Positions 1,046-50,993 of a DNA stretch of 64,000 nt are shown piece after piece. The stretch is taken from positions 10,672-74,671 of the forward strand of contig CAZAXH010000007.1 in NCBI GenBank assembly GCA_964489065.1. Direction: 5' to 3'. The stretch's first letter is position 1. The number at the start of each line of letters is the position of its first letter. Position numbers and translations under genes: made by a program. Below the pieces are notes generated by a model. The model did not search any database, had not been told where the DNA came from, and worked only from the letters and a program-made list of their open reading frames with translations. Source of the stretch: an uncultured Planctomycetales bacterium. Lineage in GTDB: Bacteria > Omnitrophota > Gorgyraeia > Zapsychrales > JANLHA01.

Positions 1046-1526
1046 TGATTTTTAAATTATGGGTGGTGTAGGATTAAAATTAAATTTATATAAATCGACT
1101 TTCTGCACCGGGCAGACAGAAGGTCGCTTTATATAGGAATTATTTGGTGGGCTCATATACCTTTAAAATTTTCGCACAATTGTTCTACTTGATATCTAGG
1201 CTGCGAACACAGCAAGGGCGCGCAAAATTTTTATAGAAATCCCTGACGTTTTCAAAATTACAATTTTGAAGTTTAAAACTAGGGTATGTTTGGAGTCTTC
1301 TCATAACTCCTTTGGGGAAATTGGGGAACTACAATTTTTATACTAATCTCCCTTTTTTCTTTTGTCAAGCAGGAAAAATAATTCGCAATTTCAAAATACT
1401 ATTTTCCCCCATAAAACCCTTGCTTTAAGGCGGCGGGGGATTTATCATACAACCGGCGGTCGGTTATCTGACAAGCGCCCGCGGCATGGGCGCCCGCCGG
1501 AACATGAAAATCCCATAAGCCTGAAC
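1046..1526. promoter_or_regulatory. AT-rich divergent intergenic region (about 480 nt) between the surface-protein gene and the B12-radical SAM gene; presumed divergent promoters
   Basis: Strong AT enrichment relative to flanks. No convincing ORF. Divergently oriented flanking genes. Confidence 0.35.
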
Positions 1527-16526: not shown

Positions 16527-16919
16527 TTATCTTCTGGAATGGGTACGCCTGGAAGATGATACCGCCGCGCCGGCTGTCCGTGACGGCTTGTTGCGGAGGG
16601 TCTTTTTATAATCAACAAATTTAATAGCAATCAGGAAAAACACGCCAGCAGCCTTTTTCTCCACCCGGACCACTTGGCCGTATCCTTTAAAAATATCAAG
16701 GATCCCGGACATCACCACGTTAACTTCAATGATGTCATCGACGTGCAAAGGGATATCGGAAAAGAACGCCAGCCCCAGGAAGCTCATATCATGCGTCGTG
16801 GATAAATGCCAGCGTTTATCCGCTTTCCGAATCCGTGTTTTTACGACCCGGAACTGGATGCTCAGAATACGTTTTGCGCGTAAAGCCTGCCTCATTTCGC
16901 CAATAGGCTGTTTAACCAT
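16527..16919 (-). CDS. PilZ domain protein (putative c-di-GMP receptor)
   Basis: RxxxR (LRAKR) and DxSxxG-like (DMSFLG) motifs at the appropriate spacing. About 130 aa. Confidence 0.5.
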   Translation of the reverse strand: MVKQPIGEMRQALRAKRILSIQFRVVKTRIRKADKRWHLSTTHDMSFLGLAFFSDIPLHVDDIIEVNVVMSGILDIFKGYGQVVRVEKKAAGVFFLIAIKFVDYKKTLRNKPSRTAGAAVSSSRRTHSRR

Positions 16920-17004
16920 AATTCCCTCTTTTATAATACAAGTCCTTTAATAAGGATAATCTTTAAATCCTTATTCGTCAAGAGGTTGCTCAGTAAGTTT
17001 AGCG

Positions 17005-17078
17005 GGGCTCTTGGTTTAATAAGCCGTAGCCTTGCTGCGGTTCATTGAGTTCAGAGCTTGCTCTAGGGTTTATAGCGT
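17005..17078 (-). repeat. Partial (5'-half) copy of the ~175-nt structured intergenic repeat, reverse orientation
   Basis: CTTGCTGCGGTTCATTGAGTTCAGAGCTTGCTCTAGGGTTTATA matches the reverse complement of the 5' half of the copies at 31388, 31700 and 39413. Confidence 0.55.
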
Positions 17079-17091
17079 TGATTTCCCGGGG

Positions 17092-19053
17092 CTAAAAGGT
17101 GTTCCGTTTAAAAAACAACCGGATATCCCCAGAGGGTTTCTGGTCTGTCAAAGAAAAAATATAGACCCTCTTCTCTTCTATCGGCTGACCAGGCTGGTCT
17201 TGGATGCCATACGTCAAGGAAACCTCCGCGTAAAGCGTATCAACGGGGAAAATGGTGTAAACATGGAAAGTGGCTGTTTCGTCATAGATGGCATAGAGGC
17301 GCTGAAAATCCCGGGAAGCGGTAAATAACCTGACGTAGGGATTCCTGTCATAAAGAATCCTGGCTCCCCGGGGCAATTTCAGGGAAAACGTTAAGTCCTG
17401 AATATCATTGGAAAAAGTTTTACGGATCTTCTGCGTAGGTCCCTTAAAATCCTCTATCCCGGGCTGCGCGGCCAGGAAGGTCTCGATATTCCCCTTGAGA
17501 GGCAGGGTTCCCACCCGTTTATTTTCCAAGTCCAGAATACGGATGCTGTGATTGTTCGTATCAGCGATAAACACACGGTTATTCATATAGCTTACCCCGC
17601 CGGGCCCATTGAACAGGGCCCGGTGAAAAGGGCCGTCTCTAAAGCCTCTGCGAGCGTCACCGCTTAAAGTAGTCAAAGTGTTGTCGGACAGGGAAAACAC
17701 CCGGATTTTATTATTGTAGGTATCGGCGATCAGCAAGGATTCCGGAGTCCGGCATAACCCCAACGGATGCTGCAAGCGCGCCTGCTCCGGGCCCCCCTCC
17801 TCATCGCCATACGTATGCAAACCTTTCCCCGCCATTGTCTCCACCTGCGCACCCAAAAACAGCCCGACACGCCGTATAGCGCTGACCTCGCTGTCAAGGA
17901 CGTAAACGGCATTCTCGGACGGAACGATCCCGGCCGGCTGCGCAAAGGCGCTCTTGAGAAGGGGACCATCAAGCAAATTTTCAATCCCTGACCCGGCATA
18001 CACCTTGATATTTCCATCCTGAAGATCCAGGGTCCAGATCTGGTGCGCGCCGGTCATGGCGATATATAACTGTTCCCCGACCCGTGTCAAATCCGTCGGG
18101 TAATTTAAATCAACCGCAGTCCCGGCCCCTTGGGGAAAACGAGACAGACTTCTACGCCCTGTCCCGGCGATGGTAACCACCTTTCTGGCTTTCAGGTCGG
18201 CCCTCCGGACCGCGTGATTCCCGGCATCGGCGATATAAAGGCTATCCCCCTGCCTCGCCATCCCCTGAGGATCGGTGAACCGGGTGGTCTCAAACGCCCC
18301 GTCTTCAAGCCCGGGAACCCCAGAGCCGATCGTATCCTGAATACGCCCCTGCCCATCGGTTATAAGGATCCGGTTATGGCCGGAGTCGGCGATGAACAAC
18401 CGTTCATCGTCTGTGGCCAGGACCTTCCCCGGGAACAACAGGCTCGTCAACGGCTCTTTATGCCTTTCCAGCCGCAAGGACACCGGGGTGGTCCGGATAA
18501 AATAACCGCCATGGCTGATGCGGGTCCGGAGTTCTTTATCCACGGCCGGATAAATATTTTCCCCGATCTGCTTATGAACGATTTTACCTTCCGGGTCAAT
18601 CAAAATAACCGTGGGCCAGGTGTGAATATCGTAATCCCGCCATATTCTCAACGAGGCGTCATTCACCACCGGATAATCCAGGCTGTAACGGATCACCGCT
18701 TCCTTGACATTATCCGTATAACGCTGAACAGGATATTTGGGAGAATGGATTCCTACAATGACAAGCTCACGGGGATATTTTTCTTGCAAGGCCTTTAATT
18801 CAGGGAAAACATTGACGCAGTTAACGCTGGAATATGTCCAGAAATTCAGCAGGACAAACTTGCCCTTCAGGTCCGCCAAAGTCAACGGAGCTTCGGTGTT
18901 CAACCAGTCCAGTCCGGGCCGAAGCGTCGGCGCCTGTTTATGCGGAAGATACTCCACGAGACCGGCACCCGCCGGAAGTCCGGCGGGATTAAAAAACCAC
19001 AAGACCGCCAGGAAAAGGTAAAAAAAACGCGGTATTGATTTCATGATTTCCAT
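17092..19053 (-). CDS. Thioredoxin-like (redoxin/AhpC-TSA fold) domain protein fused to NHL-repeat beta-propeller
   Basis: Signal peptide. A redoxin-like segment (FVLLNFWTYSSVNC...WPTVILIDPEGKI). Repeated NHL-type blocks follow (LFIADSGHNRI, LYIADAGNHAVRR, VYVLDSE, LLIADTYNNKIRVF, VFIADTNNHSIRIL). Confidence 0.75.
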   Translation of the reverse strand: MEIMKSIPRFFYLFLAVLWFFNPAGLPAGAGLVEYLPHKQAPTLRPGLDWLNTEAPLTLADLKGKFVLLNFWTYSSVNCVNVFPELKALQEKYPRELVIVGIHSPKYPVQRYTDNVKEAVIRYSLDYPVVNDASLRIWRDYDIHTWPTVILIDPEGKIVHKQIGENIYPAVDKELRTRISHGGYFIRTTPVSLRLERHKEPLTSLLFPGKVLATDDERLFIADSGHNRILITDGQGRIQDTIGSGVPGLEDGAFETTRFTDPQGMARQGDSLYIADAGNHAVRRADLKARKVVTIAGTGRRSLSRFPQGAGTAVDLNYPTDLTRVGEQLYIAMTGAHQIWTLDLQDGNIKVYAGSGIENLLDGPLLKSAFAQPAGIVPSENAVYVLDSEVSAIRRVGLFLGAQVETMAGKGLHTYGDEEGGPEQARLQHPLGLCRTPESLLIADTYNNKIRVFSLSDNTLTTLSGDARRGFRDGPFHRALFNGPGGVSYMNNRVFIADTNNHSIRILDLENKRVGTLPLKGNIETFLAAQPGIEDFKGPTQKIRKTFSNDIQDLTFSLKLPRGARILYDRNPYVRLFTASRDFQRLYAIYDETATFHVYTIFPVDTLYAEVSLTYGIQDQPGQPIEEKRVYIFSLTDQKPSGDIRLFFKRNTF

Positions 19054-30311: not shown

Positions 30312-31370
30312 TTAGCTGATACACCGGTTTCGTATGTCCTCGATGAGCGGCAGAATCTCCAGGAAGCGGTCCACAATAATGGGAGAAAAATGGGTTTCTT
30401 TCATATGCCGAATCTCCTCCACCGCCGCGTCAACCGGCCAGGCCTGCTTATACGGCCGGTCCGAGGTTAACGCGTCAAAAACATCACAAATACTGCAGAT
30501 CTGGCCGACCGTAGGGATTTCCTCACCCCGGAGCTGTTTGGGGTATCCGGTCCCGTCCCATTTTTCATGATGCGTAATGCAAATGATCTGCGCCATTTTC
30601 ATAACCGGAGAACTGCTGCCGGCCAAGAGCTTGGCGCCGATGACGGTATGAGTTTTCATGATTTCATATTCTTCCTGCGTCAAGCGGCCCGGTTTCAGCA
30701 GAATGGCGTCAGGAATACCGAGCTTGCCGATATCATGAAGCGGGCTGGCGTGTAACAAAAGGTCGCACTCCGGCAGACTCATCCCCATCGCCACCCCGAA
30801 TTTCTGGCAATACTGGCTCATCCGGATGATGTGCAACCCTGTATCGCTATCGCGAAATTCCGCAGCCTGGGCAAGTCGCCGGATGATGTCCAACTGAGTT
30901 TCCCGCAGTTCTTTCGTCCGCTCCTGGACTCTGCTTTCTAGGATCTTGTTCTGATTTTTGACTTCCATATGCAAACACCGCATTTCAATCATGTTGTGGA
31001 TGCGGAAAATGATTTCCATATTTTCATAAGGCTTATTAAGGAAATCCGTCGCACCGGACTGCAACGCCCGCAAACGGACATCAGAACTTTTCTCCGAAGA
31101 CAGGGCCAGGATGGGAAGATAATGTTCCTTACGGAATTCCGCCAGTTGTTCCATGACCTGAAACCCGTCAAGGTGCGGCATAAATATGTCCAGGACGATG
31201 ATCTCCGGCTGAAAATCCCGGACCAACCCAAGGACTTTCAGGGAATCATTGGTATATTCCACGTTCTTAAATCCTTCTTCAGCGAGGATTTTTTTTAAAT
31301 AGAGCCCGTGAAGTTTCTGGTCATCCACAATCAGGATTCGGGAATGAGCCATTTGTTCTTTTGTGTACAT
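30312..31370 (-). CDS. Response regulator with HD-GYP domain (c-di-GMP phosphodiesterase, RpfG family)
   Basis: N-terminal receiver (ILIVDDQ...VLDIFMP). HD motif (HDIGKLGIPD). HHEKWDGTGYP signature. Confidence 0.85.
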   Translation of the reverse strand: MYTKEQMAHSRILIVDDQKLHGLYLKKILAEEGFKNVEYTNDSLKVLGLVRDFQPEIIVLDIFMPHLDGFQVMEQLAEFRKEHYLPILALSSEKSSDVRLRALQSGATDFLNKPYENMEIIFRIHNMIEMRCLHMEVKNQNKILESRVQERTKELRETQLDIIRRLAQAAEFRDSDTGLHIIRMSQYCQKFGVAMGMSLPECDLLLHASPLHDIGKLGIPDAILLKPGRLTQEEYEIMKTHTVIGAKLLAGSSSPVMKMAQIICITHHEKWDGTGYPKQLRGEEIPTVGQICSICDVFDALTSDRPYKQAWPVDAAVEEIRHMKETHFSPIIVDRFLEILPLIEDIRNRCIS

Positions 31371-31387
31371 AACGTTAATCTCTTAAA

Positions 31388-31560
31388 TCAGAGGTATAAA
31401 CCCCAGAGCAAGCTCTGGACTCAATTAACCGCAGCAAGCTGCGGGGTATTAAACCAACATCCTTCAACTCGTTCGCTTGAGCTCTTTCGCCTGAAGGATC
31501 AATTCGCATTTTTAGTTTACACTCCCTTAGGTCGTGTAAACTAAATGCTCATTGAATCAA
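31388..31560 (+). repeat. Structured intergenic repeat, copy 1 (~175 nt)
   Basis: Near-identical to the copies at 31700 and 39413. Contains tandem hairpins CCAGAG-CAAG-CTCTGG and CCGCAG-CAAG-CTGCGG, an ATCCTTC...GAAGGAT stem, and a long 3' hairpin GCATTT..AGTTTACAC-loop-GTGTAAACT.AAATGC. Confidence 0.75.
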
Positions 31561-31699
31561 CCCCATACCAGAACACGAGCATATTTCTTCCATGTCCGGA
31601 GCAGACAAAAAGCAATAAATAGTCTTATTTTAGTGTGCGCGTAGCCGGAATGTAAGGAAAATTACGGTTTTTTTGAATCCCGTTAAAGATTTTTAAAAT

Positions 31700-31870
31700 C
31701 AAAGGTATAAACTCCAACGCAGGCTCTGGACTCAATGAACCGCAGCAAGCCGCAGGGTATGAACCCGACATCCTTCGGCTCGTTCGCTTGAGCTCTTTCG
31801 CCTGAAGGATCAATTCGCATTTCTAGTTTACACTCCCTTGGGTCGTGTAAACTAAATGCTCATTGAATCA
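31700..31870 (+). repeat. Structured intergenic repeat, copy 2 (more degenerate 5' hairpins)
   Basis: About 88% identical to copy 1. It lies 140 nt downstream of copy 1 in the same orientation and overlaps the last ~20 nt of surE. Confidence 0.75.
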
Positions 31871-32619
31871 AAATTCCACCCCCGCATATTCTCTAAGGTC
31901 CGGTCATCCGTTAAATCACACTGCACCGGGCAAATCGTGATGTATTTCTCTTTTAAGGCGCTGGTATCAACGTCCAGGGCCCTGTCCGTGCGGGGCGCCC
32001 TCCCGCTCATCCAATAATATGTTCGTCCCGAAGGATCCTGCCGTTTCCGGAAGGTCCCGTCAATAGGCAGGAGGCATTGCCGGGTCACGCGGACTCCTTT
32101 GATCTTCCCGGCGGGGAGAGCGGGAACGTTAATATTCAAGAATGTCCCCGGCGGGAGCCCCCTTTTGAGCACGTCTCTGGCAATACCCCGGGCGACCTTC
32201 GCCGCTGTCCGGAAATCAGGCTTGACAAAGGTATCCAACGAAACCGCCAAAGAAGGGATTCCGCTGAAGGCGCCTTCCCTGGCCCCTGCGACCGTCCCGG
32301 AGTAAAACACGCTACAACCATCGTTGCCGCCGAGGTTGATCCCGGACACAACCAAATCCGGTTTTTTCTTTAAAATCACCTTCATGGCAAACTTAACGCA
32401 GTCCGCCGGCGTTCCGCTGATCCCGTAACCGAAAAACGTTTCTTTCCGCTGGACGGTTTTATACCAAATCGGGTGCGACAGCGTAATCCCATGCCCGACG
32501 GAACTCCGTTCGCTGTCCGGGGCAACGACAACGATGTCCCCCACCTTTTTCATTTCCGCGGCAAGCGCATAAATCCCTTCCGCATAAATACCGTCGTCAT
32601 TTGTGATCAATATGGTCAT
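31852..32619 (-). CDS. surE: 5'/3'-nucleotidase SurE
   Basis: MTILITNDDGI...GINLGGN motifs. The start was reset to the internal ATG with an AGGAGG ribosome-binding site. The track ORF was over-extended to 32697. Confidence 0.85.
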   Translation of the reverse strand: MTILITNDDGIYAEGIYALAAEMKKVGDIVVVAPDSERSSVGHGITLSHPIWYKTVQRKETFFGYGISGTPADCVKFAMKVILKKKPDLVVSGINLGGNDGCSVFYSGTVAGAREGAFSGIPSLAVSLDTFVKPDFRTAAKVARGIARDVLKRGLPPGTFLNINVPALPAGKIKGVRVTRQCLLPIDGTFRKRQDPSGRTYYWMSGRAPRTDRALDVDTSALKEKYITICPVQCDLTDDRTLENMRGWNFDSMSI

Positions 32620-32677
32620 ACCCTTCCTCCTGAAAATGTTCCTGTTTCTCCCGTCCTGCAACCATACCAGCGCCCCG

Positions 32678-33736
32678 TCAAAGGGCGTGCAGGGCACAAA
32701 GTTTCTCGACTATTTTTACACTGCCGGATGGCATCGCAAAATCCGCGAACTCACGCAAGCTCACCCAGCGGTGGGCAGAGTCGCCTCGGGGCAACGGGCG
32801 CGTAGTACAAAGCCATACGGATAAGTGCACCCGGAACCGGGTATAAAAATGCCGCACATGCATCAACGGCACGGCCGTTTGAATCACAACCCCCAGTTCT
32901 TCTTTGATCTCCCGTTCCATAGCCTGACGGCTCGTTTCCCCGGCTTTAATCCGGCCGCCGGGGAACTCCCATAATCCCGCCAACAATCCGGTCGGTGGCC
33001 GCTGTTGAATCAAAAATCGTCCCTTATACTTAATCACGGCAACCGCCGCACGGACGTCTTCCCATCGTTTTGCTTTCGGCTCAGGAATAATCTCCTGCAC
33101 TCCTTTATGATAGGCCAAGCATGTCCCCCGCACCGGACATTGGGAACACAAAGGAAGCTGACGGCGGCAAAGGATGGCCCCCAACTCCATTAAGGCCTGG
33201 TTGAAATCCCCGGGAAGCCTAACCGGCAAAAGACGCTTTAATTCTTCGGCAATCACGCCGTCATGCCGGCCCTCTGCCGTTCCTTTCAAAAGAAGAAGAC
33301 GCATAAAGACCCGGCGGATATTCGCATCAATAATCGTCTCCGCCTTTTGAAAAGCGATGCTTAAAACCGCCCCTGTCGTGTAAGCCCCAAAACCAGGAAG
33401 GCTCCTTAAGGTGTCTTTATCCGCAGGCAATACCCCGCCGTGCCTTTCACAGATAATCTGTGCCGCCTTATGAATATTCCGGGCCCGCTGGTAATAGCCG
33501 AGTCCTTGCCAGGCCTTTAAAACCTCGGCCGATGAAGACCGGGCCACGCTCGCAATATCCGGGAACTTCGCAAGCCATCTTTCATAAAAAGGGATAACGA
33601 CGGAAACTGTTGTTTGCTGCAACATAATTTCAGAAATCCATATTTTATACGGATTACACGTTCTCCGCCAGGGAAGATCCCGGGCATGACGCCGGTACCA
33701 AGAACGCAAACTCCGCCTAAAAGCGTTTCTATCCAT
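32678..33736 (-). CDS. mutY: A/G-specific adenine DNA glycosylase
   Basis: HhH-GPD motifs (LPGFGAYTTGAV). [4Fe-4S] Cys cluster (CxxxxxxCxxCPxxxxC). C-terminal NUDIX-like domain. Confidence 0.85.
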   Translation of the reverse strand: MDRNAFRRSLRSWYRRHARDLPWRRTCNPYKIWISEIMLQQTTVSVVIPFYERWLAKFPDIASVARSSSAEVLKAWQGLGYYQRARNIHKAAQIICERHGGVLPADKDTLRSLPGFGAYTTGAVLSIAFQKAETIIDANIRRVFMRLLLLKGTAEGRHDGVIAEELKRLLPVRLPGDFNQALMELGAILCRRQLPLCSQCPVRGTCLAYHKGVQEIIPEPKAKRWEDVRAAVAVIKYKGRFLIQQRPPTGLLAGLWEFPGGRIKAGETSRQAMEREIKEELGVVIQTAVPLMHVRHFYTRFRVHLSVWLCTTRPLPRGDSAHRWVSLREFADFAMPSGSVKIVEKLCALHAL

Positions 33737-35403: not shown

Positions 35404-35672
35404 AAAAGGATCGACACTGTGATGATATGTGTCTGACAGGGCCCTGTCCCGAGGGGAATTTCAAGCAAATCCGCCACTGCGGCTTATAAATTTATTCTGT
35501 TCTTTCCATCCCACCCTCAAGCGCAAAACAAGGGTCTCTTGAATTCACGGAGAAGGGTTACCCTGGAGCCCTTATACCCGGGGGGTCTCCATGAGCCACT
35601 CGCTTCACGGAATGAGTTGACGTCTTAACATGGGCCGGACATCTCCCGGGGAGAAAAGCTTGTTAACCCCGC
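35404..35672 (-). other. Unusually long (about 270 nt) GC-rich intergenic region with perfect palindromes (GACAGGGCCCTGTC, AGGGTTACCCT); candidate operator sites or a small structured RNA
   Basis: No ORF with coding character. A 14-nt perfect palindrome lies about 110 nt upstream of the HAD/nadK operon start. A GGAGA...TCTCC enclosing stem is also present. Confidence 0.3.
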
Positions 35673-36098
35673 TCATTCATCTCCAGGCATGCCCGTGGTC
35701 GTCTGCGAAGGCGGATAAAAATTCGGGTCAAATTGTTTGCGGCACTTCACTTCGCAGACAAAAGGGTTGATTTCAGCTTTATTCAATTCACAATCCTGAA
35801 CACAACTTTTGCATCGCATAAAAATATCATTGCTGACAAAACGGCACTCCCCTTCAACCAGGCGGCATTCCGCAAACTGGCGGCAAAAATCCCCGAGTTG
35901 ATACATCGCCGTGCAGGCCATGGGCTGACTCAATCCGCATTGTATCTCCAGCCCGTGACAATTCTGGATCCGGCATTCTTCTTCCGGCTTTCCCTGCGGC
36001 CTGGTCAGGGTCTCACGCCTTTCGCTGCTGCCCAGCAACACGAACGCGCAAGCCACAAAAATGCAAGCAAAAATCCATTTCTTAAAAATCATAAACAA
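35673..36098 (-). CDS. Small secreted cysteine-rich protein (16 Cys in about 115 mature residues)
   Basis: Signal peptide (MFMIFKKWIFACIFVACAFVLLGSS). Regularly spaced Cys pairs (CRIQNC, CTAMYQLGDFC, CKSCVQDC, CEVKC). Confidence 0.5.
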   Translation of the reverse strand: MFMIFKKWIFACIFVACAFVLLGSSERRETLTRPQGKPEEECRIQNCHGLEIQCGLSQPMACTAMYQLGDFCRQFAECRLVEGECRFVSNDIFMRCKSCVQDCELNKAEINPFVCEVKCRKQFDPNFYPPSQTTTGMPGDE

Positions 36099-36224: not shown

Positions 36225-37850
36225 TCATTGGTTTAAAAGCAACGGAGATCCCCGCCGCATCTTTTTCTGATTCATCCGGATAATCCTGGGCGTCCCATCA
36301 TGACGGGCCGACACGAAAACAAACATCGGATTCTCATTGTCAAAATAGTTCAAATAAATCATTTCCGCGAAACTGTAGCGTTTGGCGATCGGGTCCTGTT
36401 CGCGGAGACGATAGGGGTACATAAAATTCCCCGGGAAATCGTAATCGATGTAAAACGAAAACCCGGGCTGATCGCCCTCCCGCATGATCATCGACTCTAC
36501 GGCTTTGACGAGCTCGCGGCTCGGCGCGTACCACTGGGAGATGCGCCTATTCATGGAGTATACAAGACGACCATTGTGCAGCATCTGCCCCACAATCAAA
36601 ATGATAAAGGCGCACTTTATCGCCCGGGTCAAACGGTCGCTTGGCAGAGCCTCGAAGTTGACGGCCGAATACATAAAAACAACAAGGAAACACCAGATGA
36701 TGTAATGATAGATCACGGTCCCTCCGAGGGCAAAAGCCACTCCCCGCTCCTGCACCCGCGCGGATGAAATAACCGCGCCCCAGCATAAGGCCATACCTCC
36801 CAGTAAAGCCAGGAAGCCCAGCCGTTTTTTAAAGAATTCCCAGGTCCCGCTTCGTACGGCCAAAAATCCCCAACATAAAACAAATAAAGTCCCGAGCCAT
36901 AATTGCCACTCCGAAAAACCCATAACCGGGAAGATATCCTGCCGGTTGGCTAATTCCGCCCGGCCCAGGACATGGATAATTTCATATTTCCCGGGAAAAA
37001 GCGCCGAATAGATCCACCACCCCATGGCGAGAAAGGTGTTCTTGACGATTTGGACAAAATCCGGCAGGCCCGCCCCTTTAACCGGGTGCAGGCGATGGAA
37101 TCCCAGCGCCACATAGTTATATGCGCTGGCAACCATAAAAATGGCCGGGGGGATCAACAACCACAAAGACCGCCAGCGCCCGTGTTCCTTCCAAGAAACA
37201 GTCAAAAACAAATAAACAAAAAATAAAACAGAAAGAACCACACTGATTTCATAAGTCAAGGCGGCCACGGTCATTCCAGCGGACGCGATCATCAAACGGT
37301 GTGTTTGCCGACGTTTTCCTTCCTGATACAGCCATATCTGATTCAGGCTCATCAGGGTCATCATCACCGCCAAAAGAATACTGTTGACCGCGTGCCAGAC
37401 AACCGTTTCCATATTCATAAAAAGAAAAGAAAAATAGCCCGCCATCATAATGGCGAATAAACTGGAGCCGATATTGAGTAAAAGTCTTAATAACATTCCA
37501 ACGATGATCAGGTGCATAACAAGTCCGGTCACCTGCCACAGCACGAAATTATACCCAAAAAAAAACTTCTCTGATCCCATAAGAAAATACGCGCCGGGCC
37601 TGAAGATCAAATAATCCCCCGGGGCAAAAGTCCGGGAGCGCGACCAGTCAAAAGATTGGATAGCCAGGGGAACCCAATCCTGTTTATAAGCCATGTCAGC
37701 CAGATAAAACAGATGATCCGCCCGAGGCATATGGGAAAACGACGGGAAATATATAAGAATATTGCCCGCGACGATCATCAAAAACAGAAAAAAAATCCAT
37801 GTCCGGTTTGCGGTGATTTTCATAAACATCTTGCCCGGGACAGCCCCCAC
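36225..37850 (-). CDS. Polytopic integral membrane protein (at least 12 predicted TM helices), possible GT-C-type glycosyltransferase
   Basis: Long series of hydrophobic helices with short loops. No soluble catalytic motif recognised. The start is ambiguous (MFMKIT or MKIT). Confidence 0.55.
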   Translation of the reverse strand: MGAVPGKMFMKITANRTWIFFLFLMIVAGNILIYFPSFSHMPRADHLFYLADMAYKQDWVPLAIQSFDWSRSRTFAPGDYLIFRPGAYFLMGSEKFFFGYNFVLWQVTGLVMHLIIVGMLLRLLLNIGSSLFAIMMAGYFSFLFMNMETVVWHAVNSILLAVMMTLMSLNQIWLYQEGKRRQTHRLMIASAGMTVAALTYEISVVLSVLFFVYLFLTVSWKEHGRWRSLWLLIPPAIFMVASAYNYVALGFHRLHPVKGAGLPDFVQIVKNTFLAMGWWIYSALFPGKYEIIHVLGRAELANRQDIFPVMGFSEWQLWLGTLFVLCWGFLAVRSGTWEFFKKRLGFLALLGGMALCWGAVISSARVQERGVAFALGGTVIYHYIIWCFLVVFMYSAVNFEALPSDRLTRAIKCAFIILIVGQMLHNGRLVYSMNRRISQWYAPSRELVKAVESMIMREGDQPGFSFYIDYDFPGNFMYPYRLREQDPIAKRYSFAEMIYLNYFDNENPMFVFVSARHDGTPRIIRMNQKKMRRGSPLLLNQ

Positions 37851-37878
37851 TCTACTCCCAAGAGGAGCCTTCTCTCTC

Positions 37879-39303
37879 CTATCGGGATATAGGCCGCTGT
37901 CCTCCTTTTGTTTTTAAGCCGACCAAAGCGTCGTACCCCAATATCATGAGCCGTTTTATAATCAGCACCGGATTATACCCCAGCATCATCTGGATGACAT
38001 GAACAGGATGACGGAAAAAAGTATAAAGATACATGCGAAACGCGAAGCGCGCAAAATTAAAATTCTCTAACCCCTTGCTCACATACACCCGGCGGCCTGA
38101 GGTCGTGCCGGGAAGGAGAGTGTCCTGGATCTCCCCCTTTTTAACCAGTTCATCGTACACAGGAGTTCCGGGCATAGGCTGAAAATACTGTATCCCCAAG
38201 TGATCAAAGTCGCATTTTTTCATCAGCGCTTCGGTCTGGCGGATATCTTTCGTGGTCTCGCCCGGATACCCAATCAAAAATAATCCGATCGACACCAGCC
38301 CCGCGCTCCGGATTTCCCGGGCCTTAGCCGGCCACATATCCGGGTCCAAATCTTTTTTCATGAGTTTCAGCACCCGCCGGGAACCGCTCTCCGGGGCGAC
38401 AACCGCGGTCTTCCATCCGGCGCGCTTCATAAGTTTCAAAGTCTCAAAATCCACCCGCTGCGCACGAATCCCATTGGCCGTGTACATCGTCAATCCCTGA
38501 AAATTCTTTTTGATCAAAGCCTCACAAAAGCTCTTGGTATAATCCGCCTGAAAGGCAAAATTATCATCGATAATATTAACGTGACGCACCTTATATTTAT
38601 AATAAAGCATCGATATCCATTCAATCCCGTAATCCACGGAATGCCGGCGGATCTTATGTCCGTTAATCTGCGGGGCGGTGCAGAATTTACAGCTGTACGG
38701 ACAGCCCCGCGTCATCCAGATCGGCGCGCTGCGACGTGTCCCTGAAAAATAGCGGTACCCTTTACGGTAATATCGTTCCAGTTCAATAGCGTCATAATCT
38801 GGATAAGCGATCGTATCCAAATCCTGCGTGAAGGCCAAAGGATTCGTCATGAACCGGTCGTCTAAACGGTACACCAGGCCAGGGACGCGCAGGAGTTTTT
38901 CTTTATCACGCAGATTCTTTACGAATTCCTGGAAAGTGAACTCCGCTTCACCGGCCAGAATATAATCCGCCTGGCTGTCGCTTAAAGTCTTGGCCGCATA
39001 GGCCGTAGGATGTATTCCGCCCAGGACCGACACGGCTTCCGGAAGATCGTTCTTAACAACCGCCACGATTTTACGGGCTTCCTGATATGTCTTAGACCAG
39101 CAAGAAACCCCCACGACATCCGGGGCGTAATCCTTCAGGAATCGCCGGAAAGAATCTGAATGGGACGGCGCATTATTCAACGTACCGTCAAATATCTTAT
39201 ATTCCACTCCCGGGGCCCGGCAGTTAGATATAATATACCCCAAGCCAAGCGGAATGGAATAAGTGAAATCATTGCCATGCGGCCAAACGAGCGCAACCCT
39301 CAT
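37879..39303 (-). CDS. B12-binding domain / radical SAM protein
   Basis: N-terminal B12-binding-like domain (MRVALVWPHG...VVGVSCWS...VLGGIHPT). Radical SAM CxxxCxxC (GCPYSCKFC). Confidence 0.8.
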   Translation of the reverse strand: MRVALVWPHGNDFTYSIPLGLGYIISNCRAPGVEYKIFDGTLNNAPSHSDSFRRFLKDYAPDVVGVSCWSKTYQEARKIVAVVKNDLPEAVSVLGGIHPTAYAAKTLSDSQADYILAGEAEFTFQEFVKNLRDKEKLLRVPGLVYRLDDRFMTNPLAFTQDLDTIAYPDYDAIELERYYRKGYRYFSGTRRSAPIWMTRGCPYSCKFCTAPQINGHKIRRHSVDYGIEWISMLYYKYKVRHVNIIDDNFAFQADYTKSFCEALIKKNFQGLTMYTANGIRAQRVDFETLKLMKRAGWKTAVVAPESGSRRVLKLMKKDLDPDMWPAKAREIRSAGLVSIGLFLIGYPGETTKDIRQTEALMKKCDFDHLGIQYFQPMPGTPVYDELVKKGEIQDTLLPGTTSGRRVYVSKGLENFNFARFAFRMYLYTFFRHPVHVIQMMLGYNPVLIIKRLMILGYDALVGLKTKGGQRPISR

Positions 39304-39412
39304 GGCTTAACCTTTCGTTAAAATCCGGGTAGGTAATAAGAATGTAAGTAGTAGCGTTGGAATCCATATCGCTATACGAGCCTTGAACTGCATGAATATC
39401 CTATGACAAATC

Positions 39413-39584
39413 AAAGGTATAAACCCCAGAGCAAGCTCTGGACTCAATGAACCGCAGAACGCGCTGCGGGGTATTCAACCAGCATCCTTCGGCTCGTTCG
39501 CTTTAGCTCTCTCGCGCTGAAGGATCAATTCGCATTTCTAATTTACACCCCCTTGGGTCGTGTAAACTAAATGCTCATTGAACG
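39413..39584 (+). repeat. Structured intergenic repeat, copy 3
   Basis: About 90% identical to copy 1. The second hairpin loop is changed (CCGCAG-AACGCG-CTGCGG) while the stem is preserved. Confidence 0.75.
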
Positions 39585-39845
39585 TGTCATTATACCGAAT
39601 AGTCTCGGGGTAAGAAACAAAAAGTTTCAAAAAGGGTGGATATTGATCCGCCTTCGTAGAAGACCACGGCATACCCATAAATGCGAGGGGGGAACAAGGT
39701 CTTCTGCTTCGGAGGTTCGCACATATATTAATTAAGAAGCCCGGGATCCCGTGAAACGAACTGTCCCTAGGCCCCCCCGCCCATAGGCGTGAGCCATCGC
39801 ACGAGCAGTGAATTTCAGAAACAGCGGAGAAATTGGAGAAAGGGA

Positions 39846-42569: not shown

Positions 42570-45038
42570 TTAAAGACCATTCGTCACGTTCGCAACGTTG
42601 GATTGGTTAATCGCACCATTCAAACTACCCGTCGCACTCATAATGTTCGTTTGAACAGACACGCCAGATCCAACAGCGTTTACAGTACTCAACGCGGTGA
42701 TGCCGGCCTGTGAAGATCCGGATAAAATCAACACGTTTTTCTCGCTCTTATTTTGACGATTTGTGTTCGTAACTTCCGCTACGTTTGTGATTGTCTGACT
42801 TGCATCGTTGGTTGTCGCTTCGATGTCTTTTGTTTCAACCGCATTCTCGGTTTTCTCATACTGATCTTTGAACTCATCGTTGTTACGTGCTTGCGCACTT
42901 TCGGAAGCCTGCTCTTCTTCATGGTTAAACGTCGTTGATAAGGCTCCTTCAGCTTCGAAATTGCTCGTGGTTGACAGACTATTTTCATCAGAATGATCCG
43001 TCGTGTCAATCGAGTCGGTCGAAGCGGCAATATCACGAGATGCTGATGTGGATACGGCGTCAGAATCCGTGTACCCGATCGTCAACCCGGATGAAGAGTC
43101 AGATGAATCCGCTTCAGATGCAGAAGCAGAAGCCGCATCATCATACGCCACGTTTAAAGAACCCGAAGCTGTGGTGTCTGTAGAAGAAGCGGATGACGCT
43201 GAATCATTATAAGCAGCATCTACGGAATTAGACGCTGTCGCTTCTGAAGAAGAAGCAGATGACGCAGAGTCATCATAGGCTGCGTTTAAAGAACCGGAAG
43301 CTGTGGTGTCAGCAGAAGAAGCAGCCGACGCAGAATCATTGTACGCAGCATCTACGGAATCAGACGCTGTCGCCTCTGAAGAAGAAGCGGCTGACGCGGA
43401 ATCATTATAAGTTCCATTTAAAGAACCCGATGCTGTTGTTTCTTCCGAAGCAGCGGCAGATTGCTGAGCTTCGTTAGAAGCAGCCGCATTGGCAGAATTA
43501 GACGCAGAATCATTATAAGTCGCGTTCAGATTCCCAGCTTCATTACTGTTAGAGTCTGCAGAACTGGAGCTCGCGGCAGAATCATTGTAAGTCGCAGAAA
43601 GCGCGCCGGAGGCATCCGTACCCTCGGAGCTGGCCGCTGATGTTGACGCTGTGTTGTCTTTGCTGTCATACGTGTCGCTGCTGGAAGCAACGCCTTCAAC
43701 CGTGGTGGTTGAGGTCGCGCAATCTTCGCAGGTGTCCGTGCTCTGGCTATAAGTCCCGTCAAGCGCCTGCGCACTTGTCGTGGTTTCCCCATCCGTGGCC
43801 GATGAACTGGTCGAAGATTCCGATGCCGCGTTGTCAGAATACTGGGCATTGGCATCTAAAGTAGCGGATGTGGCTTCTTCAGCAGCAGCTTCTTGAGAAG
43901 CACTATCCGACGCGGAATAGTCAGCTTCCAGAGAAGCGGCCGTCGCATTATCAGCCTGTGAACTGCTTTGGGATTGAGCGGCTTCACTGGCGCTGGATTC
44001 AGAAGCTGCGCTATCAGAATAGTCAACAGCTACGTCTAAGGACGCATCCGTTGCTTCCTGCGACTGCGAAGCAGCACTATTAGAGGAAGCCGAATCCGCT
44101 GCAAAGGTCGCGGAGGTCGCTTCTTCTGACTGGGCGGCTTCACTGTCAGAATAGTCAACAGCCACGTCTAAGGACGCACTGGTGGCTTCTTGGGATTGCG
44201 AAGCAGCACTATTAGAGGAAGCTGAATCCGCTGCAAAGGTCGCGGAGGTCGCCTCTTCTGCCTGAGCGGCCGCACTGTCAGAATACTGGGCTTCGGCATC
44301 TAACGACGCGGACGTCGACTCGGCCGATTCAGATTCAGCCGTGTGAGCGGCTGACTGTTGAGCCTGTTGATCGTAATCAAACGTCGTGTCATGGGAAGCG
44401 TTGAACTGCGCGTCAGCGCTGTCTGTGGCTGCGGCGTGATCTTCGTTCAAAGTTGAATCAGTGACTTTAGACGCTGCATCAGAAGTAGCAGAGCTTGATC
44501 CAGAAGCGGACGCGTCTAATGTAGCCGATGTAGATTCGGAAGAACTGCTGGCTGCTGAAGACTGCTCGTTGTCATATATTTGGGTATTGTCTTCTTTTTC
44601 CCACAGGTCAGACGTCTTCACTGTGGTTTCTTTTGACCAAGCATTAACCTGATCCTGTTCCACGATATTCGTGGATTTGGTGGTCACGGAATAATCTTCA
44701 GAAGGATTCATGTTAACCACCGCCGCAGTGTTGCTCTGGACCGCCTCCACGTCAGCCTGATCTTCAGAATTACCGACGTTGGTCTGCACGGCAACCGCGC
44801 TGTCCACCGTATTAACAACACTCAATCCTGTTAAATTTTCCTGCGCGCCACTTTCGGATTTGAGTTGATTTTCGCTGAAATAAACATCCTCCACCACATC
44901 GCCTTCAGCGACCACGATCCATTCACCAGCCGCGATTTCGTCCATTTCGGAATCAGAAAGCGCAATGCCTTCTGCGTAACCGGCCACCGGATAGGCGGCG
45001 AACGCCACGGCCAAAATCCAAATTAATAATTTTTTCAT
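42570..45038 (-). CDS. Giant secreted S/A/D/T-rich repetitive protein with conserved N- and C-terminal N/Q/V/G-rich modules (FapC-like amyloid subunit candidate)
   Basis: Start set at MKKLLIWILAVAFAAYPVAGYA with a ribosome-binding site; the track start at 45107 is over-extended. A roughly 650-aa low-complexity core carries 44-aa tandem repeats. The termini resemble the small paralogue (…VNAVGSGVSVQTNIMSATGSLNGAINQSNVANVTNGL). Confidence 0.5.
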   Translation of the reverse strand: MKKLLIWILAVAFAAYPVAGYAEGIALSDSEMDEIAAGEWIVVAEGDVVEDVYFSENQLKSESGAQENLTGLSVVNTVDSAVAVQTNVGNSEDQADVEAVQSNTAAVVNMNPSEDYSVTTKSTNIVEQDQVNAWSKETTVKTSDLWEKEDNTQIYDNEQSSAASSSSESTSATLDASASGSSSATSDAASKVTDSTLNEDHAAATDSADAQFNASHDTTFDYDQQAQQSAAHTAESESAESTSASLDAEAQYSDSAAAQAEEATSATFAADSASSNSAASQSQEATSASLDVAVDYSDSEAAQSEEATSATFAADSASSNSAASQSQEATDASLDVAVDYSDSAASESSASEAAQSQSSSQADNATAASLEADYSASDSASQEAAAEEATSATLDANAQYSDNAASESSTSSSATDGETTTSAQALDGTYSQSTDTCEDCATSTTTVEGVASSSDTYDSKDNTASTSAASSEGTDASGALSATYNDSAASSSSADSNSNEAGNLNATYNDSASNSANAAASNEAQQSAAASEETTASGSLNGTYNDSASAASSSEATASDSVDAAYNDSASAASSADTTASGSLNAAYDDSASSASSSEATASNSVDAAYNDSASSASSTDTTASGSLNVAYDDAASASASEADSSDSSSGLTIGYTDSDAVSTSASRDIAASTDSIDTTDHSDENSLSTTSNFEAEGALSTTFNHEEEQASESAQARNNDEFKDQYEKTENAVETKDIEATTNDASQTITNVAEVTNTNRQNKSEKNVLILSGSSQAGITALSTVNAVGSGVSVQTNIMSATGSLNGAINQSNVANVTNGL
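43151..43480 (-). repeat. In-frame 132-nt tandem repeats (about 2.5 units) inside the giant protein gene
   Basis: The unit beginning CGTTTAAAGAACC(C/G)GAAGCTGTGGTGTC recurs at 43151, 43284 and 43416. It encodes repeats of the type ...ASGSLNAAYDDSASSASSSEATASNSVDAAYNDSAS... Confidence 0.7.
43985..44300 (-). repeat. Second family of in-frame 132-nt tandem repeats (about 2.4 units) inside the giant protein gene
   Basis: The unit containing TCAGAATAGTCAACAGC(T/C)ACGTCTAAGGACGCA recurs at 44014, 44146 and 44278. It encodes ...ATSATFAADSASSNSAASQSQEATSASLDVAVDYSDSEAAQSEE... Confidence 0.7.
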
Positions 45039-45421
45039 TGTTATCCTCTCTTTGACTGCAAGGGCGAAAAGCCAGCTTCGCTTTCCATTAACCCTCTGCT
45101 CACTCACTTATTTTTATTCGCCAAATTCACGTGCCTCGTCCTTCCTAACTATATCCGCGCTCACCTCCTTTCAAATCCTTCACAATAAAAAGACCGGAAC
45201 GAACCAAACCTACTTGGCTCTTTTCCGGGATGACTTTTTTACAAGTTGTCTTTTTCATCAATTTAAGGACCCTGACATGCGACATAAAAAATCGCCCCTA
45301 TTTTAGCAACAAACCAGTTATAAACAATGGCCGCATTTGTTCATCTATTGGAATTTTTTGTCTTGGGCACCCCATAAAAAGGCAGGCCATTTTTTAACAA
45401 AGCAATACTTTTTAGGGGATA

Positions 45422-47323: not shown

Positions 47324-48702
47324 AGTCTTGAAGAAAATACGGCCCGGTCAAGATGCCGCTCCAACGGCAAGCCTTCCCACGCCTCTGGTTGTTCCATGCA
47401 TAAATAAACAGGAACGCGGCTGTCATGTTCCCGGATAAAGCTCACCATGCTTTTATATATCTTTTTTCTTACACCCAACTGATACCGCAGTTTTCCGTCA
47501 TAACCCGGCACAAGTTCGCCGAACAGAAGGCGGGACGCCGGGAAACGGGTTTCTATCGCCTGCTGCAGACGCGGCATCATCCGCAAACACCCCAGACTGA
47601 TCCAGACCACCCTTTCTGGAGGAACAAAACTAAACAAACGCCGGATCACATCCCGGTAAGATTCCGCCCACCCCTCGTCATACACGATCGGGTCAAAATG
47701 GAACGACACGCGCCAGCCCCAAGCAGCGCATTTTTGCGCCGCCGCCAGCCGGGCCTCCAAAGGCGCCGTTCCTTGCTCATCACAGGCGGCAATCCGCGCA
47801 GGATTCAGGGACCAACCGACACAAACATTCGGTACGGGCTCTTCTTCCAACAATAAACCTATATTATCACTTTTGGTCTTAAATTCAAAAAACCACTCCG
47901 GGTGCCGCCGCATGAAAGAAACAATGCCCCGGGAATATTGCGTAAAATGATCCAATGCCAAAGAATCGCTGAACTGCCCGCTCCCGATCCGCCAGGGGCC
48001 TCCGTGAGCCTCAAGCCTTTCAAAAAAATCATTAACATTCGCCGGGAGAACGATTCCCGGAGAATTCAGATACCCTTGCATAAAACAATACGTGCAATCA
48101 AACGGGCAGCCCTGTCCTAAATTCAGGACAGCGTACCCGCAGGAAACCGATCCTGGGGAACAGGGGCACGGCTGCCAAAATTGATGCTGTTCCTGAACGA
48201 CAAAAAAGGTTTCCGCCCGCCGGTTATAATCGTCAACGGAATAGGCCTGTTGACGGCAATAATGCTTATACGAAAAAATCGGCTCAATGGCGGCGTCGGG
48301 GGCTAGCCGCCGAAGTCGCCGGACAAGCGGGTCGGTCATTAGCGGTTCTTCCACGAACACCTTTTTCGGCTCCCACCGGCAGGCAACAGGCCCCGACACC
48401 TGCATCCGGCAGGGCTCCGGGATCTTCAGAAAACGCTGCAGGCTTTTTCTTTGAGCCGCGGTCATATTTGGATAACGCCGTTTCGTCAAAAACGCCTTGA
48501 CCTGCCGGAAGGAATCACTGCGTTTGATGGCTTCCGGCAAGACACTCTGGAGATGACAGCCGTCCCTTCTGACAATCTCAAACAAAAGGCGGGAAATTTC
48601 CTGTTTCTTATTCACCCCGAAAGCAGGAAAAACGTCCTCTGTATAACGTTGAATCGTCTGAATCGAAATGCCTCCATCCATTATGAACCCCCTCGCATTC
48701 AT
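47320..48702 (-). CDS. Radical SAM protein, spore-photoproduct-lyase (SplB)-like DNA repair family, with about 190-aa N-terminal extension
   Basis: CxxxCxxC (GCPFDCTYC) in an SPL-like context. ATGA overlap with the upstream aldo-keto reductase gene. Confidence 0.65.
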   Translation of the reverse strand: MNARGFIMDGGISIQTIQRYTEDVFPAFGVNKKQEISRLLFEIVRRDGCHLQSVLPEAIKRSDSFRQVKAFLTKRRYPNMTAAQRKSLQRFLKIPEPCRMQVSGPVACRWEPKKVFVEEPLMTDPLVRRLRRLAPDAAIEPIFSYKHYCRQQAYSVDDYNRRAETFFVVQEQHQFWQPCPCSPGSVSCGYAVLNLGQGCPFDCTYCFMQGYLNSPGIVLPANVNDFFERLEAHGGPWRIGSGQFSDSLALDHFTQYSRGIVSFMRRHPEWFFEFKTKSDNIGLLLEEEPVPNVCVGWSLNPARIAACDEQGTAPLEARLAAAQKCAAWGWRVSFHFDPIVYDEGWAESYRDVIRRLFSFVPPERVVWISLGCLRMMPRLQQAIETRFPASRLLFGELVPGYDGKLRYQLGVRKKIYKSMVSFIREHDSRVPVYLCMEQPEAWEGLPLERHLDRAVFSSRL

Positions 48703-49646
48703 CCCCGGGCATGCCCGTGGTTTTCTGTGAAGGCGGATAAAGCGGCGATCGTTTCCATGTCCTCTTTTGATAAATCCCAGTCGGCCGCGCCCATATTATC
48801 GGCCACCTGCCGGGCGCTCCGGCACCCGACGATAACACTGGAAACACCCGGCTGCTGGCGCACCCAGTTGACCGCGATCTGCTGAGGCGGCCGGCTGATT
48901 TTCCTAAAAGCTTCAAGCGCCGACTGCGCTTTCCGGAATGGTTCTCCGCTATAAAACTTATAAAAAAAACTCCGGGCGTCGGCCTTATCCAAAGCCGGCG
49001 GCACCGCATATTTCCCTGTCAAAATGCCGCCCCCCAAAGCGCCATAGGCGAAAACCGCCACTCCTTGACTCCGGCAAAAAGGGAGGATATCTCCGGCTAT
49101 ATCCCGGGTCAGGACGGAAAACTGGTTCTGGACCGAAAAAATCTCGGCATACTCCATGGCTTCTTTTAATTGTGCCAAAGAAAAATTGCAAACACCGATA
49201 TCCCGAATTTTCCCTTCTTCCTGAAGTTTGCGCATGGCGCTCATGGTTTCTTCCAAAGGGGTTTTCGGATCAGGCCAATGACACTGATACACATCAATAT
49301 AGTCCGTCCCCAGGCGGCGCAAAGACTGTTCCGCCTCGGAGCGGATGCTCGCGGCCTTGAGGCTGATCAGGATGCGGCGGCCCTCTGTGACCAACCCGCA
49401 TTTTGTCGCGATAATAACCCGGTCCCGGCGGCCTTGAATAGCCCGGCCGACCAAAGTTTCAGCCAACCCCCGCCCGTAAATCGGAGCCGTGTCAACACAT
49501 GTTACCCCCGAATCCAAAGCTGCCTGTATGGCTTGCAGACTGTCCTTCTCGTCGCTTCCTCCCCAGCTTTCCCCCCCATGCACCCAGGTCCCTAAAGTCA
49601 AAGCCGAAAGCTTCAGCCCGGAACGCATCTCCTTAATATATTTCAT
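48699..49646 (-). CDS. Aldo/keto reductase
   Basis: AKR family blocks (LGTWVHGG...DTAPIYG...IGVCNFS). Confidence 0.85.
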   Translation of the reverse strand: MKYIKEMRSGLKLSALTLGTWVHGGESWGGSDEKDSLQAIQAALDSGVTCVDTAPIYGRGLAETLVGRAIQGRRDRVIIATKCGLVTEGRRILISLKAASIRSEAEQSLRRLGTDYIDVYQCHWPDPKTPLEETMSAMRKLQEEGKIRDIGVCNFSLAQLKEAMEYAEIFSVQNQFSVLTRDIAGDILPFCRSQGVAVFAYGALGGGILTGKYAVPPALDKADARSFFYKFYSGEPFRKAQSALEAFRKISRPPQQIAVNWVRQQPGVSSVIVGCRSARQVADNMGAADWDLSKEDMETIAALSAFTENHGHARG

Positions 49647-50555: not shown

Positions 50556-50672
50556 TGACAATTAGAAAGGTAAACTATTCGAAAGAATAGGGCGCAAAGC
50601 CGTGAGCCTAAAGCTTCCTTCTGATAAATAGGGGAATGACATGGTTGTCTGGCTACCGTAACCATCCGGTTC
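50556..50672 (+). promoter_or_regulatory. c-di-GMP-I (GEMM) riboswitch aptamer
   Basis: GGTAAACTATTCGAAAGAATAGGGCGCAAAGCCGTGAGCCTAAAGC aligns to the Vibrio cholerae Vc2 aptamer GGCAAACCAUUCGAAAGAGUGGGACGCAAAGCCUCCGGCCUAAACC. The P1b GAAA tetraloop hairpin, the GCAAAGC motif and CCUAAA are all present. A TTGACA -35-like hexamer lies at 50555. Confidence 0.7.
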
Positions 50673-50685
50673 CGTGAAAACATGA

Positions 50686-50716
50686 GCCCTTCGAATCTTT
50701 CGAAGGGCTTTTTTCT
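50686..50716 (+). terminator. Intrinsic terminator forming the riboswitch expression platform
   Basis: GCCCTTCGAA-TCTT-TCGAAGGGC followed by TTTTTT. It lies 14 nt before the downstream ribosome-binding site. Confidence 0.65.
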
Positions 50717-50729
50717 TAAGGAGTGGGGC

Positions 50730-50993
50730 ATGAAAAACGTCTTATGGATACTGCTGGCCGTGACGATCGTGGCCGCCTGCGGCCTAAAAGCTTTCGCCGC
50801 GACGCCAACATCTTCACAGGAATTTAAAATTTCCGTTTATATCCCGGCCATCCCTGGGGTCAACGCCCCCCTGAATCAAATGACGGATGAAACGAGCAAC
50901 GACACAAAAACCGGGGCATCCTTTTACACCATCACGGAAAAACTCCAGGAGAACGGGCAAACGGTGATCCGGGAAACGATCGTGGCCCGATAG
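50730..50993 (+). CDS. Small secreted protein or lipoprotein (87 aa) under riboswitch control
   Basis: AAGGAGTGGGG ribosome-binding site. Signal peptide with possible lipobox (VAACG). The track ORF starts earlier at 50682, inside the terminator. Confidence 0.5.
   Translation: MKNVLWILLAVTIVAACGLKAFAATPTSSQEFKISVYIPAIPGVNAPLNQMTDETSNDTKTGASFYTITEKLQENGQTVIRETIVAR

Follow-up and report, generated by a model that had tools for sequence, protein, structure and literature searches.

Interspersed structured repeats are, to our knowledge, well known in a few cultivated bacteria and hardly described in uncultivated phyla such as Omnitrophota. The hallmarks of classical MITE families are terminal inverted repeats and target-site duplications (e.g. 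TA). REPs are 20–40-nt units with a conserved GTAG-type head and alternating orientation, and are mobilised by RAYT, an HUH enzyme encoded elsewhere. In the BOX elements of pneumococcus, the boxB module is ~45 nt long. BOX as a whole is a boxA-boxB(n)-boxC composite in which the ends pair with each other, the middle folds alone and the number of modules varies between strains; it inserts into or modifies the ends of coding sequences, is co-transcribed with its neighbours and carries terminal inverted repeats resembling those of ISSpn2 (PMC3049150). MITEs such as Correia/CREE, RUP and Nezha, together with ERIC, are small, non-coding, base-paired, multi-copy and intergenic, and they are co-transcribed and can alter gene ends and expression (PMC3049150). 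Elements of the IS200/IS605 group such as ISDra2 have no inverted repeats and show subterminal hairpins, head-to-tail junctions and a strand bias, and ISDra2 inserts 3' of TTGAT with no duplication (PMC2806898).

The ~175-nt repeats described here, found in a 64-kb stretch of Candidatus Omnitrophota DNA (the window), make up a family, not described before, of small non-coding insertion elements rich in hairpins. Their kind is a familiar one, that of the interspersed, structured, non-autonomous bacterial repeat, and they are neither a new RNA gene nor a new category of biology. The repeat unit is modular: an A module is followed by one to at least four tandem B modules and then by a C tail, an arrangement mapped by BLAST and nhmmer as A + B × N + C. 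Module A (~61 nt) consists of AAATCAAAGGTATAAAC and then two 6-bp hairpins. Module B (90–92 nt) holds an ATCCTTC...GAAGGAT stem, the near-invariant motifs CTCGTTCGCTT and GGATCAATTCGCAT and a GTTTACAC/GTGTAAAC hairpin, and the C tail, AACTAAATGCTCATTGAAT, completes a long terminal hairpin. Read on the gene strand, the element runs from its left terminus TCAATGAGC through the long imperfect hairpin, the B module or modules and the A module to its right terminus CCTTTGATT. On this strand each B module shows a 7–10-bp ATCCTTC/GAAGGAT stem with the near-invariant motifs AAGCGAACGAG and ATGCGAATTGATCC, and the two 6-bp hairpins of the A module have CUUG loops.

Three full copies, each with a single B module (A-B1-C) and located by repeat finding, alignment and BLAST, lie on the minus strand of the window. 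Copy 1 (31385–31562) comprises, in plus-strand coordinates, module A at ~31385–31445, module B at ~31446–31538 and the C tail at ~31539–31555. Copy 2 (31696–31873) lies within the 3' end of surE, and copy 3 (39408–39584) lies ~105 nt upstream of a B12-binding radical-SAM gene (37879–39303, minus). Alignment and BLAST (E-values 1e-61 to 1e-92) give pairwise identities of 88.5–91.2%, in keeping with the three full copies at 88–90% identity reported in an earlier note on this DNA, and all three have in common a 23-mer for which the chance expectation is 0 matches. The reverse-oriented half copy of that note is also real (17011–17084, 86% identity over 74 nt). A covariance model built from the family extends it to 16941–17084 (plus strand, the orientation opposite to the other three; 49.9 bits, E = 2e-11); its A module is clear at 17011–17084, and the remainder is eroded or deleted, with most of the middle gone. 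This degenerate copy lies between a PilZ gene (16527–16919, minus) and an NHL/redoxin gene (17092–19053, minus). Run on the 64 kb, the covariance model recovers exactly these four loci and no additional copies, and scores copy 1 at 215 bits and copy 2 at 208 bits.

The family appears to be narrowly distributed. An exact scan of 185,579 species genomes with a degenerate A-module 23-mer returned one Omnitrophota MAG, from a sludge digester, with three loci. A metagenome scan with a B-module pattern returned 27 loci, nearly all from one activated-sludge assembly at uniform 6–8x coverage and the few others from two JGI samples. With duplicates merged there are about 27 distinct loci, evidently of one sister species of the window organism (Candidatus Omnitrophota), with coding DNA 94–95.5% identical to that of the window. 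The closest homologs of the window's SurE, at 96%, 81–83% and 69% identity, are likewise all from Candidatus Omnitrophota MAGs. We provisionally describe the distribution as a narrow Candidatus Omnitrophota clade, as seen by exact-pattern searches, which miss diverged relatives. The repeats have no match in an Rfam gathering scan of the whole window and only chance-level matches (E ≥ 0.5) in an Rfam E-value scan of 31300–31950; viral contigs (exact 19-mer) and plasmid and phage collections (blastn) gave no match to the repeat; and nothing relevant was found in the literature on Omnitrophota repeats. The sole Rfam gathering match in the window is a c-di-GMP-I riboswitch, away from the repeats, and a tRNA/tmRNA scan of the window found none.

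Copies 1 and 2 occupy the region between surE and a signalling operon. The surE gene (5'/3'-nucleotidase; 31852–32697, minus) was assigned by homologs named SurE and by PF01975, and the HD-GYP response-regulator gene (Response_reg + HD_5/HD by Pfam; 30312–31370, minus) is the first gene of a phosphorelay operon. The two copies had been described as standing in tandem, but they do not abut head-to-tail: between them lies a 133-nt spacer of host sequence with a promoter-like site found by consensus scan (CTTACA-18 nt-TAAAAT; 31627–31656, minus). The hexamers CTTACA and TAAAAT are invariant in four genomes and the spacer around them is divergent, and we infer from this conservation that the site is the promoter of the HD-GYP operon. 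As the conserved promoter-like site lies 5' of copy 1, which ends 14 nt upstream of the HD-GYP ATG at 31370, copy 1 would be inside the 5' UTR of the HD-GYP/phosphorelay operon.

Copy 2 contradicts the statement that all copies are intergenic, as it covers the last 20 nt of the surE ORF and its stop codon. On the gene strand, surE ends in the window as TGG AAT TTT GAT|TCA ATG AGC ATT TAG, and at the empty site of related genomes as TGG AAT TTC GAT TGT ATT TTA AAA AAT CTT TAA. The last six ancestral codons (C I L K N L) have thus been replaced and the stop codon (31854–31852) is supplied by the element.

Empty sites were present in related genomes at all five loci compared. The site of copy 2 is empty in the sister species (L016/L032/L033), where contig L016/L033 is collinear with 31.5–39.5 kb of the window and lacks copy 2, and it is empty in L034/L035. 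In the relatives L034–L037, with SurE proteins 81–83% identical, surE and the HD-GYP gene are separated by a 139–151-nt spacer with no element, and covariance model R1 agrees, revealing no hidden copies in the relatives without the element. It follows that the window/sister lineage gained both copy 1 and copy 2. The sites L005a and L005b, which flank a DUF6569/ARPP-1 gene, are occupied in the window and sister species and empty in the relatives L040/L041. The radical-SAM gene beside copy 3 and the next gene are absent from the relatives L034/L035. Between the window and the sister species, occupied loci differ in module number: the ortholog of copy 1 has at least 2 B modules versus 1 in the window, and the ortholog of copy 3, on sister contig JAKQCK010000022.1 (L032), has 2 versus 1. 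Orthologous copies are 87–89% identical, compared with 94–95.5% for coding sequence and 86–95% for intergenic DNA.

The placement of copy 1 in a 5' UTR suggests another explanation, in which the repeat has been selected as a cis-regulatory leader of the gene downstream, an RNA akin to a riboswitch, attenuator or thermometer. Many copies do end 14–65 nt upstream of a start codon in the orientation of the gene, and stems are conserved and unpaired motifs invariant across the family. However, the downstream genes, identified by reading translations and by Pfam, are unrelated (HD-GYP regulator, radical SAM, ClpB-like, dehydrogenase, APRT-like, Rex-like, HU and PilZ), and a regulon was rejected for this reason. 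Equally many copies adjoin the stop or terminator of the upstream gene, and the scatter of distances is much alike on the two sides, to the stop upstream and to the start downstream. Close relatives make do without the element in this operon, neither a terminator nor an anti-SD feature is apparent, and the paralog identity of 84–91% is a signature of recent dispersal and not of independently maintained aptamers. We consider selection as a leader very unlikely, and incidental effects on mRNA stability or translation are plausible by analogy with BOX, ERIC and Correia elements (PMC3049150).

Returning to the family as a set of dispersed insertions, the B modules vary within it as well as between orthologs. 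At loci outside the window the B counts are 2, 3, about 3.6 and at least 3, and TRF gives the arrays periods of 90–91 nt. B units inside one array are 97–98% identical, versus a mean of 84% between copies at different loci; because the units within an array are far more alike than copies between loci, the arrays grow in place. At one locus, two whole elements stand head-to-tail with a single terminal heptamer in common.

Copy 1 is predicted to fold at −52.8 kcal/mol on the plus strand and −61.6 kcal/mol on the minus strand, both far more stable than shuffled sequences (z = −5.1 and −4.6, respectively). With 12 single-B copies as input, RNAalifold returns a consensus of 45 pairs in which 94–95% of cells are paired. 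The consensus includes a long-range helix between TCAATGA, which lies between the two short hairpins, and TCATTGA in the C tail, so that the structure is closed by A with C, and B forms an insert that folds separately. Both this helix and the modular make-up of the unit had been overlooked in the earlier note. A small inner hairpin in the B loop, GCTC/GAGC, was dropped as it is not conserved.

Double compensatory changes are found at five or six pairs as compared to about 2 expected, and values as high as those observed arise in 0–4 of 500 shuffles. Since relatedness among sequences can by itself outdo shuffles even where there is no structure, we take the compensatory excess as moderate support. 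These changes include an A-U to C-G double change in the closing helix of L009 and L021, a U-A to G-C double change in the B stem, and, in the long hairpin, both a G-C to A-U and a U-A to G-C double change. Conservation is 94.6% in paired columns versus 81.3% in unpaired columns. Structural selection had been proposed on the strength of one loop swap, seen in copy 3, where the loop of hairpin 2 has 6 nt (AACGCG); the doubly compensated pairs now back it more broadly. The paired CAAG-loop hairpins ascribed to every full copy are as described in copy 1, but both are mismatched in copy 2, where hairpin 1 (CCAACG/CTCTGG, loop CAGG) is decayed, with two mismatches, and hairpin 2 contains two mismatches of the A.C type.

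A comparison of G.U and A.C counts is near neutral between the strands, with 94.3% versus 94.8% paired. Tetraloops point both ways: CUUG caps the two short hairpins on the gene strand, and CUUG/UUCG occupies the long hairpin's apex on the opposite one. The relevant strand is likely the one opposite to that read in the earlier note.

A very stable fold on either strand, compensatory changes in excess and near-invariant loop motifs are also features that a multi-copy family of independently transcribed, trans-acting small RNA genes could present, and small RNAs were among the identities first suggested for the repeats. A consensus scan, however, finds no promoter- or terminator-like consensus inside the unit on either strand, and Rfam offers no match. 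Copies sit in a 5' UTR, as copy 1 does between a conserved promoter-like site and its gene, and at the end of a coding sequence, which copy 2 overlaps. The number of B modules varies from 1 to at least 4 among orthologous loci, orthologs evolve at least as fast as the neighbouring intergenic DNA, and several copies are truncated or internally deleted. We regard small RNA genes as very improbable. As to other motifs in the unit, TTTACA-15 nt-TAAACT in the long hairpin was rejected as a sigma-70 promoter, its spacer being too short, and sigma-54 and hammerhead-like motifs were absent by eye. The conserved stems and compensatory changes fit best with a constraint on the propagating (master) copies, whose mobilisation as single-stranded DNA would require the fold. 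A host function at the RNA level could be an alternative source of both.

A third explanation places the function in the DNA itself: a REP/BIME-like protein-binding array, recognised by a nucleoid protein, gyrase or a TTCGC-recognising regulator, with the hairpins incidental. Such a role would be compatible with mobility. Each B module has two invariant TTCGC-containing motifs 32 nt apart, repeated every ~91 nt in arrays; the neutral strand test is expected of a double-stranded DNA feature; and REP/BIME elements provide precedents (PMC3049150). On the other hand, compensatory stem changes are not expected for simple duplex binding sites, and the TTCGC motifs are direct and not palindromic. Part of the motif invariance is ascertainment, because the metagenome pattern demanded that one or more B units of each locus carry the motifs, although six copies found without that pattern keep the motifs too. 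Protein binding as the basis of the family is, in our view, unlikely.

The junctions show where these elements insert. Of 23 distinct left flanks, taken in gene orientation, 19 end in T(T/G)AT after a run of T's, directly before TCAATGAG. The element thus stands directly 3' of a host hexamer, TTT(T/G)AT, which is often an intrinsic-terminator U-tract; a terminator hairpin with its U-tract adjoins the element at L001, L005b, L010 and L030. For copy 1 the presumed host target pentamer is ATCAA at 31556–31560, or TTGAT on the gene strand. The left flank of copy 3 is atypical (ACACGT). The hexamer is also seen at empty sites: TTCGAT at the site of copy 2, TTTTAT at L005b, consisting of a terminator plus TTTTTTAT, and TTTTAT at L005a, in GTCTTTTATT. 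When filled and empty sites are compared, five nucleotides (TGTAT) are missing at the right junction of copy 2, L005b has 3–4 additional nucleotides, and the left junction of L005a is deleted.

Inspection of the ends, AAATCAAAGG... and ...CATTGAATAAAA, by eye gave no convincing terminal inverted repeats, with a best inverted match of about 6 of 8 nt. Of the genuine inverted pair TCAATGA/TCATTGA, just one member stands at an end of the element. The left and right subterminal hairpins, ~17–24-bp imperfect and two 6-bp with CUUG loops, respectively, have no sequence similarity. The flanking heptamers are similar in all copies but identical in only 3–4 of ~12, and they differ systematically between the two sides (in gene orientation, TTTTAT on the left and TTTGAT on the right); a target-site duplication would instead match within each copy and vary from copy to copy. 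AATCAAA was rejected as a target-site duplication for the same systematic difference between the two ends. The right end of the element is CCTTTGATT in nearly all copies and resembles the target; because it mimics the target in this way, a short duplication or a core-type site-specific recombination may have taken place instead of a duplication-free insertion. The earlier suggestion of a MITE-like mobile repeat can accordingly be divided: mobility is borne out by the five empty sites, the ~27 dispersed loci and the variable number of B modules, but a classical MITE is not, in that inverted ends and a duplication are not convincing.

Elements are strongly oriented with respect to their surroundings. 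They are co-directional with both flanking genes at 18–19 loci, opposite at 4 and mixed at 4, and orientation by GC skew is 23:4 (binomial p ~0.0003), a figure confounded by the presence of >90% of genes on the leading strand. Because of this gene bias, and because terminator U-tracts are themselves stranded, the orientation bias could stem from replication, transcription or target availability.

Taken together, the repeats are probably a non-autonomous, non-coding mobile element family of a narrow Candidatus Omnitrophota clade, as delimited by exact-pattern searches. The claim that no transposase is associated with them stands for the DNA examined: Pfam found no transposase or integrase in ten window ORFs, all plus-strand ones included, and tblastn with an approximate IS200 TnpA probe over ~0.5 Mb of loci gave nothing better than E = 0.1. 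An enzyme encoded elsewhere would mobilise the element in trans, most likely along a strand-specific route of the IS200/IS605 (HUH/Y1) type that depends on hairpins. The B arrays would expand and contract by slippage or unequal recombination. Copies would be passively co-transcribed within 5' and 3' UTRs, where their stable folds may influence how long the mRNA lasts or how well it is translated, as happens with BOX, ERIC and Correia; at most loci such UTR effects would be a by-product and not a selected function. Bolder readings can be entertained and are, in our estimation, rather unlikely. One would make the family the first case of a BOX-like element that expands by modules and is moved by a single-strand HUH/Y1 (IS200/IS605-type) mechanism homing to terminator U-tracts. 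Another, more speculative, would see in it an orphan RNA scaffold dispersed genome-wide, either an omega-RNA-like guide scaffold with the 3' flank as guide or a platform for a dedicated RNA-binding protein, in which case the compensatory changes would reflect RNA function and not a transposition intermediate.

Under the preferred reading as a mobile element, the family is a clear, datable case of an element rewriting gene ends and UTRs. At one locus, a c-di-GMP-related signalling operon has 0, 1 or 2+ of its 91-nt modules added in the 5' UTR. Several contigs end inside B arrays, which explains assembly breaks there, and the variable number of B modules offers strain-typing markers. The enzyme that moves an element without inverted ends, inserting it beside terminator U-tracts, is a tractable question. 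The family is useful for Omnitrophota genomics and unsurprising in kind.

Each of the described systems matches these repeats in part. Like classical MITEs and ERIC, the family is small, non-coding, highly base-paired, multi-copy, intergenic for the most part and able to alter gene ends, and it is polymorphic for presence and absence; unlike classical MITEs, it has neither inverted termini nor a target duplication. With REP/BIME it shares an intergenic, palindromic and mosaic character and a frequent position after genes, and here a trans-acting HUH mobiliser would be a further likeness. It differs from them in its ~175-nt unit with five helices and in having all modules co-oriented.

The fit to IS200/IS605 derivatives is only partial. 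As in ISDra2, IS608 and PATEs, the element stands 3' of TTT(T/G)AT, with TTGAT at copies 1 and 2; as in IS200/IS605 elements, it lacks terminal inverted repeats and a clean duplication, has hairpins at both ends, forms a head-to-tail junction and shows a strand bias. Unlike them, its left and right hairpins are dissimilar, its filled and empty junctions are 3–5 nt off, and no Y1/HUH transposase or TnpB with the family's ends was found with the approximate probe or among the ten window ORFs. We know of no described PATE with an expandable internal tandem module.

Pneumococcal BOX (Streptococcus pneumoniae, S. suis) is the closest functional analogue, through a likeness of architecture. The family is found in another phylum, making homology unlikely, and it differs from BOX in its 90–92-nt B module, its lack of terminal inverted repeats, its strong orientation bias and its specific T-rich flank. 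As in BOX, nonetheless, the element is built as A-B(n)-C, with A pairing to C, an independent B, a B number that varies by locus and the modification of gene ends.

Many public contigs of this clade's genomes terminate within the ~175-nt element or within arrays of its tandemly repeated B module (loci L003, L006, L011, L015, L016, L019, L024, L031, and L032). Because so many contigs end in this way, assemblies from this Omnitrophota clade are systematically broken by the repeat family.

Element copy 3 lies at the upstream edge of a two-gene indel (36225-39303), and its left flank, ACACGT, is atypical. The indel comprises a B12-binding radical-SAM gene (37879-39303) and, next after it, a gene of ~500 aa (36225-37850) that has no Pfam hits. 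Both genes are found in the window and in the sister species, and both are missing from the syntenic region of two more distant relatives (L034 and L035).

A second small repeat family, unrelated to the ~175-nt element and with a unit of ~55-60 nt (TTWATCCGCCTTCRYAGAMRACCACGGGCATRCCYGGRGATGAATGMGMGGGG), is present in the window as three copies of 80-87% mutual likeness, at 35660-35720 (-), 39640-39700 (+), and 48680-48745 (-). One of these copies is a close neighbour of element copy 3, ~55 nt beyond its end. A search of the 35.7-kb copy against Rfam returned nothing at E ≤ 1.

Repeats also occur within or beside open reading frames. Inside an 845-aa ORF (42570-45107, -), the stretch 43116-44336 holds tandem repeats with units of 66 and 132 nt that keep the reading frame and are 67-89% identical; the ORF has no Pfam match and probably encodes a repetitive surface or coiled-coil protein. 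Separately, a direct repeat of 143 nt (1-143 and 757-899; 91% identical, spacing 756 nt) falls within or adjoins the ORF at 3-1046 (-).

Across the window's whole length and in all loci compared, GC skew is strong and uniform (about -0.11 on the + strand of the window), and one strand carries more than 90% of the coding bases. Taken together, these data indicate an unusually strong gene bias toward the leading strand.

A c-di-GMP-I riboswitch was identified at 50559-50660 (+) by its match to Rfam RF01051 (60.4 bits, E = 2.5e-09), directly upstream of a 103-aa ORF (50682-50993, +) with no Pfam match. As HD-GYP and PilZ proteins are encoded in the window together with this riboswitch, c-di-GMP signalling is prominent there.
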